The notes: generated from the letters alone by a model not told the origin. A stretch of 64,000 bases of DNA from Alphaproteobacteria bacterium (GCA_965221115.1 CBDCRU010000002.1:628172-692171), one strand, 5' to 3'. Positions 5,758 to 8,697 are shown, counted from the stretch's first letter. Translations and numbers: made by a program.

Positions 5758-6618
5758 TCACGCGTCGTCTGTCTTTCGACGCAACGGCCTCGCAAACATG
5801 CGGGGCCGCGCTTCCCTCACCATCCATCTGGATGCCGGCCGGCCGCGCCTGCTCCGCTTCACAGTCTTCTCCCCTGACGCAAGGCGATCAAGGGACGGCT
5901 CCGAATCGGAAGAGAGCTCGGCCTCTGCGCCGTCGATCGCCCCCTGACTTGGCCCAAGGAGAGCAACAGGTGGTTCCAAAACGCGAGCATGTGGGGCTGC
6001 CCGGGCGCGGACAACCGGTTCGAAGGACGACGCGGCTGTGAATGCGCCGCTGTCGCGCACGAACCTCTGGAAGTTTCCCGGATCGAGAGGAGTGTTCCAG
6101 ATCGTTTCATAAACCTTGCGCAACTCTGCGACCGTGAAGGCTGACGGGCAGAACTGTGCGGCGATTGTCGTCGTTTCGAGTCTTGAGCGGATCCGGTCCA
6201 CCGCATCCTCGACGATCCGGTCGTGGTCGAAGGCGAGACGAAGAGCGCCGCTTTCGATCCGGTCCACGGGCACGAGATCGGCAGCTGCCGCGTCGCTGCC
6301 GCCCCGGGGACGGGGAAGATTGGCGGTGATGGCCCAGAAGGCGACGGTGACTGTCCGCATGCGCGGGTCCCGCGCCGGATCGCCATAGGCGGCGAGCTGT
6401 TCAAGGTGCCAAGCGCCGCGGGCGAGGCCGGTCTCTTCCTCGAGCTCCCGGGCGGCCGCCGCCTTGAGATCCTCGTCGGGAAGGACGAAGCCGCCCGGCA
6501 GGGCAAGGTCCCCGCGGTAGGGGTCCCCGCCACGCTCGATCAGCAGAATCTTGAAGGTGTCATCCTCGATGGTGAAGAGCGCTATGTCGACGGTGACGGC
6601 AAATGGCGGATAACTCAC
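5758..6618 (-). CDS. NrtR-like Nudix-related transcriptional regulator (Nudix domain plus C-terminal winged helix)
   Basis: Perfect Nudix box GGFVLPDEDLKAAAARELEEETGL; the C-terminal region LAFDHDRIVEDAVDRIRSRLETTTIAAQFCPSAFTVAELRKVYETIWNTPLDPGNFQRFV resembles the NrtR DNA-binding domain. Start is placed at GTG 6618 (GAGGAA RBS 6 nt upstream); an in-frame ATG at 6681 lacks an RBS and lies inside the operator palindromes. Confidence 0.7.
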   Translation of the reverse strand: MSYPPFAVTVDIALFTIEDDTFKILLIERGGDPYRGDLALPGGFVLPDEDLKAAAARELEEETGLARGAWHLEQLAAYGDPARDPRMRTVTVAFWAITANLPRPRGGSDAAAADLVPVDRIESGALRLAFDHDRIVEDAVDRIRSRLETTTIAAQFCPSAFTVAELRKVYETIWNTPLDPGNFQRFVRDSGAFTAASSFEPVVRARAAPHARVLEPPVALLGPSQGAIDGAEAELSSDSEPSLDRLASGEKTVKRSRRGRPASRWMVREARPRMFARPLRRKTDDA

Positions 6619-6650
6619 GGTGATTCCTCGCTGGCTCGTCCTCGGAATAT

Positions 6651-6671
6651 TTATTGTTGTATTGACAATAA
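6651..6671. promoter_or_regulatory. 21-bp palindromic operator candidate TTATTGT-N7-ACAATAA (site 1)
   Basis: ttattgttgtattgacaataa; 7-bp arms are perfect reverse complements; lies in the divergent intergenic region between the NrtR-like gene and the operon at 6720. Confidence 0.5.
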
Positions 6672-6682
6672 TGAACGCCATA

Positions 6683-6703
6683 TAATTGTCAGTGTCACAA
6701 TAA
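6683..6703. promoter_or_regulatory. 21-bp palindromic operator candidate TAATTGT-N7-ACAATAA (site 2)
   Basis: taattgtcagtgtcacaataa; same half-site as site 1 with one mismatch; centre-to-centre spacing ~32 bp; ends 4 nt before the RBS gaaggagg of the 6720 gene. Confidence 0.5.
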
Positions 6704-6719
6704 ACTGAAGGAGGCCAGC

Positions 6720-7640
6720 ATGACCATACCCTGCCTTGAAAACGCCGCCGTAGGATCTCCAATCACGCGCCTCGGTGTCTCGTTCTTCCCTGTCTATCTG
6801 CAGGACAACCGCCTTCCGTCCATCGACACCGGCGGTTCGTCGGGATTGATCGTCAGCGAGTTCGATGTCGCGACAGTCGGGGCACTGCAGGTCACCAATC
6901 CAACTGACAAGCCGATCCTGATCGTCGAGGGTGAACATTTCACCGGCGGCAACCAGAATCGCACCATTAACGCCACCGTTCTCGTCCCGGCCGGATCCAA
7001 GCTCGATATTCCCGTGTCGTGCCTGGAACAGGGCCGATGGGGTCGCCATCGGGCATGGCGCCGCGCTGAGGCCTTCACGCCCGAGCGGATCCGGAAGAGG
7101 AAGCGGGCGAGCGTCAACAGGTCCTTCAGTGTCAACCAGGACCGCAGGAGCGATCAGGGTGCCATCTGGGACGACATCTCGGCCATGATGCTTCGTGAAG
7201 GTGTCGCTTCACCGACAAGTGCCGCCGAAAAACTGGGAGAATCCTATCGGCGTCTCCCCTCCCACAGGGAAACCGTCGAAGCCCTGGTTGAACGTGGTCC
7301 GCTTCCCGGACAGTGCGGCATTGTCGTGGCGCACGGCAGGGATGTCACAGCCATGGATCTCTTCGGTGCACCGCATCTTCTCCGCAAACACTGGGGAGCG
7401 CTGGTGCGGTCACACTTCATCGAAACCGGACAGTCCAAGGGTCACCCGTCTGCCACCCTCGCCCTCAGGAGAGTCAGGCGGCTGGCAACATCGCCGGCCG
7501 AGACCGGACCCGGTGTCGGGCTCGGTTGCGAACACCGGGTGACCGGGCGCCGTCTGACAGGCCAGGCCCTGGTCCTGGATGATGCACTGATCCATGCCTC
7601 GTTCTCGTACGACCCAGGTCGGAGCGCGCACCATGGTTGA
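6720..7640 (+). CDS. Hypothetical protein (306 aa), first gene of an operon with an ADP-ribosylglycohydrolase
   Basis: Strong RBS gaaggagg; no signal peptide or TM segments; no family recognised by eye; its stop overlaps the next gene start (ATGGTTGA). Confidence 0.6.
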   Translation: MTIPCLENAAVGSPITRLGVSFFPVYLQDNRLPSIDTGGSSGLIVSEFDVATVGALQVTNPTDKPILIVEGEHFTGGNQNRTINATVLVPAGSKLDIPVSCLEQGRWGRHRAWRRAEAFTPERIRKRKRASVNRSFSVNQDRRSDQGAIWDDISAMMLREGVASPTSAAEKLGESYRRLPSHRETVEALVERGPLPGQCGIVVAHGRDVTAMDLFGAPHLLRKHWGALVRSHFIETGQSKGHPSATLALRRVRRLATSPAETGPGVGLGCEHRVTGRRLTGQALVLDDALIHASFSYDPGRSAHHG

Positions 7641-8697
7641 TGATCGCGCGCGGGGCCTGATGGTCGGACTGGCTGTCGGCAATCTCCTGGGGATCACGAC
7701 TGAAGGGTGGCAAGCCAGGGCGATCGCCGAGGCCTTTCCCCGGGGCATGGAGGACATCGTGGCACGATCCGGGTATCCCGACGACGACGACCTGGCGCAG
7801 GCCATCATCATTGCCGAAGCAGCAACGGGCGGAGACGGTCTCGACATCGATGACCTTGGCCGGCGCTTCTGGCGCTGGGCGGAAGTGAACGGTGCGGGAA
7901 TGGGCGGACTGACCGGAGCCGTGCTGTCGCTCTACGGCGGCGACTATCCACAACGGCTCGCCCGCGGGCGCTGGAACGGCGAGCCCCGCGAACCAGCAGG
8001 CATGCCGATCATCGAGGCGTCGCGGGAGGGGTGGAAAGGTGGTCGCGCCGGGAACGGAGCACTCATGCGTACGTCACCCTTGTCGATCCTCTGGCGCGAT
8101 GACAGGGACCGGCTGGTGTGCGAGAGCGTGGTCTCGGCCGTGCCGACACACTGGGACGTGCGGTGCGGCTGGTCGTGCGCGATCGCAAATCTCGTCACGG
8201 CCGCGGCTCTCAATGGCACCTCCCTGGGTCCGGACATGCTGATGAGGGAAGCCGAGGCAGGCATGGCGGCGTCTTTGCCGAGGCTTGGGGCCTTTGGCTA
8301 TGATGTGCGGGCGCCGTACAGTGTGGTGAAGGCGGTTGACGAGGCGTCGGTCTCGACGCTGGATGACCTGAGCTTCGATGGCCACGACATGGGGTACACG
8401 TTGCTGTCGCTCCAGGCGGCGCTGATTTCCCATTGGCGGGCGGAGGACTTCGAACAGGGTCTGCGCCAGGTGATCGAGGCGGGCGGTGATACCGACACCA
8501 ACGGCGCCATTGCCGGTGCTGTGCTGGGCGCCCGCTTCGGCCTCGAGGGCATTCCCGAACGCTGGCGTCGACGGGAGGCCGAGTTAAGGGCCGGGCGCAT
8601 CCGGATGGAGGACTGCGCCGACCGGTTGATGGCCGGCGCTCGGAAAAGGGCGTCAGCTAGAACTGGCCCCCTTCTCCACCCTGACCCGTTGGTTTGA
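7633..8697 (+). CDS. ADP-ribosylglycohydrolase (ARH/DraG family)
   Basis: GLAVGNLLG near the N-terminus, GNGALMR, and GGDTDTNGAIAGAVLGARFG near the C-terminus are ARH-family signatures. Start is set at ATG 7633, overlapping the upstream stop by 8 nt; the six-frame ORF begins at 7594. Confidence 0.8.
   Translation: MVDDRARGLMVGLAVGNLLGITTEGWQARAIAEAFPRGMEDIVARSGYPDDDDLAQAIIIAEAATGGDGLDIDDLGRRFWRWAEVNGAGMGGLTGAVLSLYGGDYPQRLARGRWNGEPREPAGMPIIEASREGWKGGRAGNGALMRTSPLSILWRDDRDRLVCESVVSAVPTHWDVRCGWSCAIANLVTAAALNGTSLGPDMLMREAEAGMAASLPRLGAFGYDVRAPYSVVKAVDEASVSTLDDLSFDGHDMGYTLLSLQAALISHWRAEDFEQGLRQVIEAGGDTDTNGAIAGAVLGARFGLEGIPERWRRREAELRAGRIRMEDCADRLMAGARKRASARTGPLLHPDPLV

Follow-up and report, generated by a model that had tools for sequence, protein, structure and literature searches.

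The window analysed here, the whole 64-kb stretch of alphaproteobacterial DNA, carries two divergent transcription units separated by a short AT-rich intergenic region. The minus-strand unit is nrtR, which encodes a regulator of the NrtR family, and the plus-strand unit is a predicted operon whose products belong to the ARPP-1 (DUF6569) and ADP-ribosylglycohydrolase (ARG) families. Between them lie two 21-bp palindromes, referred to below as O1 and O2. The features of the locus are as follows, the two ribosome-binding sites (RBSs) having been read from the sequence.

5758-6618, minus strand: nrtR, 286 aa, with a Nudix domain and an NrtR winged helix; GTG start at 6618-6616
6624-6629, minus strand: nrtR RBS, minus-strand sequence GAGGAA, 5 nt upstream of the GTG
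6651-6671, no strand assigned: O1, TTATTGTTGTATTGACAATAA, a 7-N7-7 palindrome with arms complementary at 7/7 positions; the nrtR-proximal site
6657-6686, plus strand: predicted promoter of the ARPP-1 operon, -35 TTGTAT (6657-6662) and -10 TATAAT (6681-6686)
6665-6692, minus strand: predicted nrtR promoter, -35 CTGACA (6692-6687) in O2 and -10 TATTGT (6670-6665) in O1
6683-6703, no strand assigned: O2, TAATTGTCAGTGTCACAATAA, with arms complementary at 6/7 positions (one mismatch); proximal to the ARPP-1 operon
6708-6714, plus strand: ARPP-1 RBS, AAGGAGG
6720-7640, plus strand: ARPP-1 (DUF6569) gene, 306 aa, first in the operon, ATG at 6720 (PF20208, 6.9e-64)
7633-8697, plus strand: ARG gene, likely start ATG 7633 (PF03747, 1e-45)

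When the GTG at 6618-6616 is taken as the start of nrtR, the intergenic region (6619-6719) is exactly 101 bp long, and it has 41.8% GC where the window as a whole has 63.5%. The arms of O1 (6651-6657 and 6665-6671) are listed as a perfect inverted repeat and ACAATAA as a direct repeat with copies 32 bp apart; O1 and O2 likewise start 32 bp from each other, leaving a gap of 11 bp. Four nucleotides separate the end of O2 (6703) from the start of the AAGGAGG (6708). In all of this the original prediction proved accurate: it had described two near-identical 21-bp 7-N7-7 palindromes, one perfect and one with a mismatch, as AT-rich islands in a GC-rich background within a 101-bp divergent intergenic region, the second of them ending 4 nt ahead of the RBS of the plus-strand operon, and its coordinates and arms match those found here.

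The pair is singular in the window. A search of the whole 64 kb with TWATTGT-N7-ACAATAA, allowing up to two mismatches, returned O1 and O2 only (four strand-hits, against an expectation of 0.03), and none of 100 dinucleotide-preserving shuffles reached four hits. A weight matrix derived from 126 sites (124 belonging to other loci) scored O1 at 34.7 bits and O2 at 29.1 bits. The sole intermediate match (10.6 bits, at 6654) overlaps O1, and the top score beyond the operator region in the 64-kb window is 7.2 bits, so that the matrix detects no further operator in the 64 kb.

In ARPP-1, residues C101, E103, R106, W107, Q79, Q146 and Q198 are each at least 97% conserved among 67 homologues. The ARG product also shows weak similarity to the Tri1 and DraG models, under their cut-offs. 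The ATG at 7633 overlaps the ARPP-1 stop codon as ATGGTTGA and is preceded by GGAG 9 nt upstream, an arrangement that suggests translational coupling of the two genes; an alternative start, ATG 7594, would create a 47-nt overlap with ARPP-1 and has no visible RBS. The other neighbours encode a xanthine/uracil-type permease, a Rieske oxygenase, a secreted protein and an OYE-type reductase. Between 2.7 and 12.6 kb, Pfam identified no gene with an ADP-ribosyltransferase or sirtuin domain, and no NAD-biosynthesis gene is present among those surrounding nrtR, ARPP-1 and ARG. The classical NAD biosynthesis and salvage targets are thus not encountered here, and the genes that would be regulated are ARPP-1 and ARG. 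The cassette consists of three genes, and PADLOC gave no meaningful match and holds no model for it.

The regulator and its C-terminal tail

The product of nrtR is 100% identical to a 286-aa database protein (P0001). It combines an N-terminal NUDIX domain (PF00293, 1e-16, residues 14-138) with an NrtR winged helix (NrtR_WHD, PF21906, 1.5e-8), both recognised by Pfam. The closest relatives of solved structure (5bs6, 2fml and 3gz5) are the Bacteroides thetaiotaomicron AraR (BtAraR; 1.7e-22), an Enterococcus NrtR-like protein and the Shewanella NrtR (4.6e-20). These align with the window protein over residues 3-192 only, the Shewanella match spanning residues 8-192. The domain pair and the dimeric nature of the solved relatives favour the proposal, already part of the original prediction, that a dimeric winged-helix repressor encoded by the divergent gene would bind the sites. 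The best NCBIfam model is the ADPR-responsive repressor NF050029, which the protein matches with 116 bits against an equivalog cut-off of 400; the shortfall places it in a different subfamily. Judged by architecture and operator, the window protein is therefore a member of the NrtR family, distinct from the NAD-homeostasis equivalog that NF050029 describes.

The Nudix box, GX5EX7REUXEEXGU, is complete (gene region 6430-6500). Its residues are G44, E50, R58, E59, L60, E62, E63, G65 and L66 in the 287-aa numbering of alignment A1, which runs one above that of the 286-aa protein. Among the 80 orthologues (L001-L080) described below, the box is intact in 73, and the window protein contrasts in this with NrtR of Shewanella oneidensis (SoNrtR), NrtR of Mycobacterium smegmatis (MsNrtR) and SyNrtR, all three characterised and catalytically dead. 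An intact Nudix signature in the NrtR family correlates with genuine ADPR pyrophosphatase activity (Rodionov et al., 2008, PMC2330246). With its catalytic box intact, the window NrtR probably also hydrolyses its own inducer, as an ADP-ribose pyrophosphatase.

Beyond the winged helix and a variable linker, the protein contains a basic, conserved block, KRSRRGRPASRW (residues ~255-267; window 5758-5900), which carries RRGRPASRW. Of the 120 closest homologues (P0001-P0120), 92 have the motif RGRPA[SA]xW (RGRPAxxW). It resembles the core of an AT-hook and is missing from the solved NrtR and AraR structures, whose alignments with the window protein stop at residue 192. AT-hooks consist of an R-G-R-P core with basic flanks and bind the minor groove of AT-rich DNA, and the tail may similarly add contacts of this kind where the operators are AT-rich. 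That the tail determines the two-site architecture was rejected, since no correlation was found: 25 loci whose NrtR lacks RGRPAxxW still hold both operators, so the motif is not required for that arrangement.

Conservation of the proposed operator pair and variation of the module

A profile of 30 orthologues (A1) retrieved 80 loci from a species-representative genome collection, in metagenome-assembled genomes (MAGs) of Alphaproteobacteria, Acidobacteriota (Bryobacterales and Vicinamibacterales), Longimicrobiales, Spirochaetia, Rhodothermales, Acidimicrobiia and Chloroflexota. By tblastn, ARPP-1 lies on the opposite strand upstream of nrtR in 73 of the 80 loci and an ARG similar to that of the window in about 28, so that it is ARPP-1, and not ARG, that constantly accompanies the regulator. 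Two 21-bp sites, each with up to four mismatches and 20-45 bp apart, occur in 62/62 distinct adjacent nrtR-ARPP-1 intergenic regions, with a median of three mismatches summed over the 28 arm positions; such a pair arose in just 12 (0.1%) of 12,400 composition-preserving shuffles. Information content reaches about 1.8-2.0 bits per position at the ATTGT/ACAAT arms and falls to about 0-0.5 bits in the 7-nt spacer. The original prediction had called for phylogenetic footprinting and had held that absence of the motif upstream of orthologues would count against it; both sites were found there at every one of the 62 distinct loci. Conservation on the DNA is paralleled in the protein, where LDPGNFQR, a segment of the recognition helix, hardly varies (its conservation led the search program to pick it as a seed), and this parallel with the invariant operator arms supports the pairing of NrtR with the operators.

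Within the clade of the window (an alignment of 11 sequences whose NrtR proteins share 60-90% identity), the arms, the -10 and both RBSs do not vary, nor does the distance between O1 and the ATG; the O2 arms ATTGTC and CACAATAAA are invariant and the nrtR RBS, read as TTCCTC, is near-invariant, while the nrtR leader contains an 11-bp insertion or a deletion. The start-to-start spacing of O1 and O2 is 32 bp in this clade; over all loci it runs from 22 to 45 bp, most often 36. A fixed helical phasing of the two sites was rejected on this range, and no claim is made of fixed phasing or of obligatory cooperativity between dimers.

Two further elements were observed near the sites. In some Paracoccaceae or alphaproteobacterial loci (L010, L011, L031 and L032) a conserved leader of about 118 nt separates O2 from the ARPP-1 start, compared with 12-24 nt elsewhere, and this could contain a small ORF or another regulatory element. 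In many loci the tetranucleotide CAAG, which is absent from the window, is conserved directly 3' of operator 1; it was noted in the 3' flank of the right arm of site 1 at L035, L039, L041, L042 and L052. In several loci CAAG creates a second, overlapping palindrome, CTTGA-N5-TCAAG, centred on a -35 TTGACA.

The composition of the module varies. At loci lacking a divergent ARPP-1, the regulator forms part of a fusion with an enzyme: one encodes Nudix, NrtR_WHD and ADP-ribosylglycohydrolase in a single polypeptide (L049:3001-4767) and in another the regulator carries an OGG-like DNA glycosylase domain (L046:2971-4536). Two regulators of about 500 aa (L068 and L073) have C-terminal extensions of about 250 aa with no Pfam match. 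ARPP-1 itself can form the C-terminal domain of a 537-aa VWA-ARPP-1 fusion, as in Spongiisociaceae and Acidimicrobiia MAGs (L055:1174-2787; also L056, L063, L069, L079 and L080), and the palindromes upstream of these fusions are a diverged variant, e.g., TTATTGTCAAGTTGGAATAAA. A PD-(D/E)XK nuclease, an SNF2 helicase or a VWA fusion is carried by related loci. A plasmid search with ARPP-1 yielded four remote DUF6569 matches only. Among the plasmid loci, that of the actinobacterial plasmid pA-N39 from Pimelobacter simplex (L081, 30729-35862) encodes in order a hypothetical protein, DUF6569, a hypothetical protein, an ADP-ribosylglycohydrolase family protein and a RecB-like nuclease, a nuclease-bearing ARG/ARPP variant with no annotated NrtR. 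A scan of viral contigs gave one distant relative, with 38% identity.

Metagenome contigs were scanned with the double core ATTGT-N7-ACAA-N(4-30)-ATTGT-N7-ACAAT, which gave at least 120 matches. Those listed come mostly from low-GC contigs and from one tandem repeat (sample Ga0058701) and are not informative as a census. Among the matches listed, only L124 and L133 are nrtR-ARPP-1 loci; the other high-GC matches are unrelated palindromes, and the bare core is therefore not specific to NrtR. The Ga0058701 contigs (L088, L101, L104, L108, L109, L112, L135 and L138; ~40% GC) carry tandem arrays of ATTGTTGTGGTGACAAT-like units, which are probably a repetitive element of another organism, unrelated to NrtR.

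Regulators that share 60-70% identity with that of the window, and have these operators too, are distributed over MAGs from at least seven phyla or classes. Judging by their names alone, several of these MAGs belong to sponge symbionts (Candidatus Spongiisocius; APA, COS, RHO and Plut bins). The distribution suggests that the divergent nrtR-ARPP-1 module has spread horizontally within the sponge habitat, and that the window itself derives from a sponge-associated alphaproteobacterium. A broader reading would see here a compact mobile module in which ARG is optional, fused or replaced, equipped with a signal-destroying Nudix sensor and with tail contacts of the AT-hook type, and serving a response to ADP-ribosylation damage or conflict shared across phyla. 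The Nudix regulator would then sense and also destroy ADP-ribose, producing a self-resetting pulse of ARPP-1 expression. This broader reading is speculative and, taken as a whole, rather unlikely.

Predicted promoters and proposed regulation

For nrtR, a consensus scan predicts a promoter with a 16-nt spacer and 9/12 consensus matches. The plus-strand -10 is a perfect TATAAT; its last 4 nt belong to O2's left arm, and it is kept throughout the clade. Its candidate -35, TTGTAT, is inside O1 at a spacing of 18 nt and is weak (close relatives have TTGCAA at this position), and the better hexamer TTGACA, at 6662-6667, is just 13 nt from the -10; the assignment of this promoter is thus tentative. 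At loci with 36-bp spacing, a TTGACA in the right arm of O1 is placed 17 nt from a TAnnAT overlapping O2. Transcription is predicted to start near 6693 on the plus strand and near 6658 on the minus strand. In each direction the -35 would fall under one operator, and the -10 together with the start region under the other, a geometry that suggests repression by occlusion.

How would such a pair of sites operate? In the reading we favour, with a probability of roughly 85%, O1 and O2 are tandem NrtR operators through which the regulator represses nrtR and the ARPP-1/ARG operon by promoter occlusion until relieved by an ADP-ribose-type signal. One NrtR homodimer would occupy each 21-bp site, its recognition helices entering the major groove over the ATTGT and ACAAT arms and its wings contacting the flanking minor groove. 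Since O1 and O2 contain or overlap the predicted -35 and -10 hexamers in each direction, bound dimers would block RNA polymerase at both of these face-to-face promoters, giving autorepression of nrtR together with repression of the ARPP-1/ARG operon. ADP-ribose or a close derivative, the most likely signal for derepression, would bind the Nudix domain and cause NrtR to leave the DNA, as in characterised NrtRs. Hydrolysis of this inducer by NrtR itself would make induction transient, and ARG, by freeing more ADPr from modified macromolecules, could add a feed-forward component. The original prediction of two operators and autoregulation is in line with the GT-N7-AC signature of the sites, their presence at 62/62 loci and the precedents for tandem and divergent arrangements discussed below, all of which argue for binding by NrtR.

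Alternatively, the sites might be operators of another transcription factor encoded elsewhere, the adjacency of nrtR being incidental. The bare core ATTGT-N7-ACAAT does also occur in pairs in unrelated high-GC metagenome contigs without a nearby nrtR (L117 and L150). However, the sites bear the signature of NrtR operators, invariance extends to both the recognition helix and the arms, and across several phyla the sites travel with nrtR while the flanking genes differ; control by an unrelated regulator is for this reason highly improbable. It is also possible to imagine NrtR bound at O1 and O2 as an activator or dual regulator of the ARPP-1 operon, given that the plus-strand -35 in the window is poor, as in some activator-dependent promoters. 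Both sites nevertheless overlap the -10 and start regions and do not lie upstream of the -35, which makes an activating role very unlikely, and a consensus TTGACA-17-TAnnAT is embedded in the sites at most orthologous loci; moreover, every characterised member of the family is a repressor.

Two other explanations dispense with a DNA-bound regulator at the palindromes. Folded as RNA, O1 gives a hairpin at -7.8 kcal/mol (z = -3.5) and the region as a whole can give a long imperfect stem at -16.9 kcal/mol (z = -2.1), so the palindromes might act as leader hairpins affecting stability, attenuation or translation. Against this, O2 alone folds no better than shuffles (z = -0.9), the arms are maintained as sequence, compensatory changes being essentially absent, whereas the loops are free to vary, and the predicted transcription starts would place at most one site in each mRNA; Rfam has no match in the intergenic region. 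On the conservation pattern and the weak folding this reading was rejected, and its probability is minimal. The AT-rich islands might also be mere promoter elements (-35, -10 or UP-like) with incidental symmetry, in keeping with the coincidence of promoter-like hexamers and sites. It is hardly credible, though, that chance would account for a 7+7 dyad symmetry seen in 62/62 loci, which includes arm positions outside the hexamers, or for the presence of the same 21-bp unit twice. The occlusion of both promoters by NrtR dimers accordingly remains the preferred reading.

Comparison with known systems

The regulator family, the operator type, tandem sites, divergent autorepression and the link of Nudix-HTH regulators to ARG/ARPP operons are already published, and the accepted picture of how NrtR regulators work is unchanged by this finding. 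What is added here is the operator pair of an ARPP-1/ARG-linked NrtR subfamily and its strong conservation. The sites are concrete cis-elements for a branch of NrtR that would control ADP-ribose-processing genes (ARPP-1 and ARG) and not NAD synthesis; so far, ARPP-1/ARG sets have been tied to Nudix-HTH regulators by gene-neighbourhood analysis only. Together with the intact Nudix box, the operators offer a handle for asking which signal switches on ARPP-1.

Most NrtR motifs have 21-bp palindromic symmetry and a conserved GT-N7-AC core (Rodionov et al., 2008, PMC2330246), and in TTATTGT-N7-ACAATAA the positions G6-T7 and A15-C16 fall exactly on this core. In Shewanella oneidensis, two tandem sites upstream of prs-nadV were both bound by NrtR in EMSA and ADPR suppressed the binding (PMC2330246); ADP-ribose antagonises the DNA binding of SoNrtR, SyNrtR and MsNrtR (PMC2330246, PMC6800001). 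The window system resembles that of Shewanella (PDB 3GZ5/3GZ6) in its Nudix and winged-helix domains, its 21-bp GT-N7-AC palindromes and the tandem sites. It differs in its targets, ARPP-1 and ARG in place of NAD salvage genes, in a regulator gene that is divergent and predicted to be autoregulated, in a Nudix box that is intact where that of SoNrtR is degenerate, in the additional RGRPAxxW C-terminal tail and in the sequence of the operator arms.

The divergent layout has its counterpart in the nrtR-nadABC divergon of Mycobacterium smegmatis, for which autorepression and repression of the divergent operon have been demonstrated and where ADPR releases the protein from DNA (Gao et al., 2019, PMC6800001). 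Here too a palindrome lies in the intergenic region shared by divergent genes. However, MsNrtR, whose Nudix motif is catalytically inactive, controls de novo NAD synthesis and has a single 23-bp palindrome, GTTTTCGA-N7-TCGAAAAC, in place of the two 21-bp sites. Divergent organisation is further known from the nrtR/nrtX-nrtY divergons of Kineococcus, Frankia, Streptomyces (nrtR2), Proteus mirabilis and Hahella (Rodionov et al., 2008, Table 1, PMC2330246), in which nrtR is divergent from a two-gene operon, at the time of unassigned function, with predicted NrtR sites between; this layout is identical to that of the window locus. No later paper naming nrtX or nrtY was found in the literature searched.

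BtAraR (PDB 5BS6/5DEQ), the best solved-structure match to the window protein, also shares with it the tandem 21-bp sites. The AraR homodimer covers about 25 bp, and two tandem 21-bp semipalindromic sites precede the regulated araMPRDAB operons of Bacteroides (Chang et al., 2015, PMC4666351). In contrast to the window protein, its recognition helix reads DKRNFRK instead of DPGNFQR, its regulon is sugar catabolism and its effector is L-arabinose. Members of the NrtR family can therefore use effectors other than ADPR, which counts against the assignment of ADP-ribose as the signal at the window locus.

A close parallel in gene content comes from systems centred on ARG, with ARPP and repressors of the Nudix-HTH or WYL type, described by Iyer, Burroughs, Anantharaman and Aravind (2022, PMC9503650, section 3.8). 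These were proposed to counter viral ADP-ribosylation, being off by default and induced by released ADPr, and are coupled frequently, though not universally, to phosphatase, chaperone and nuclease modules (Iyer et al., 2022, PMC9503650). The window cassette likewise combines a divergently encoded Nudix sensor fused to an HTH domain with an ARG and an ARPP that has the conserved Cys/Gln signature, and no linked ADP-ribosyltransferase was found in the 2.7-12.6 kb checked. It differs from those systems in that the coupled phosphatase, chaperone and nuclease modules are absent from the cassette, in that the constant partner of the regulator in the sampled clade is ARPP-1 and not ARG, and in the operators themselves, cis-elements that were not described in that work.
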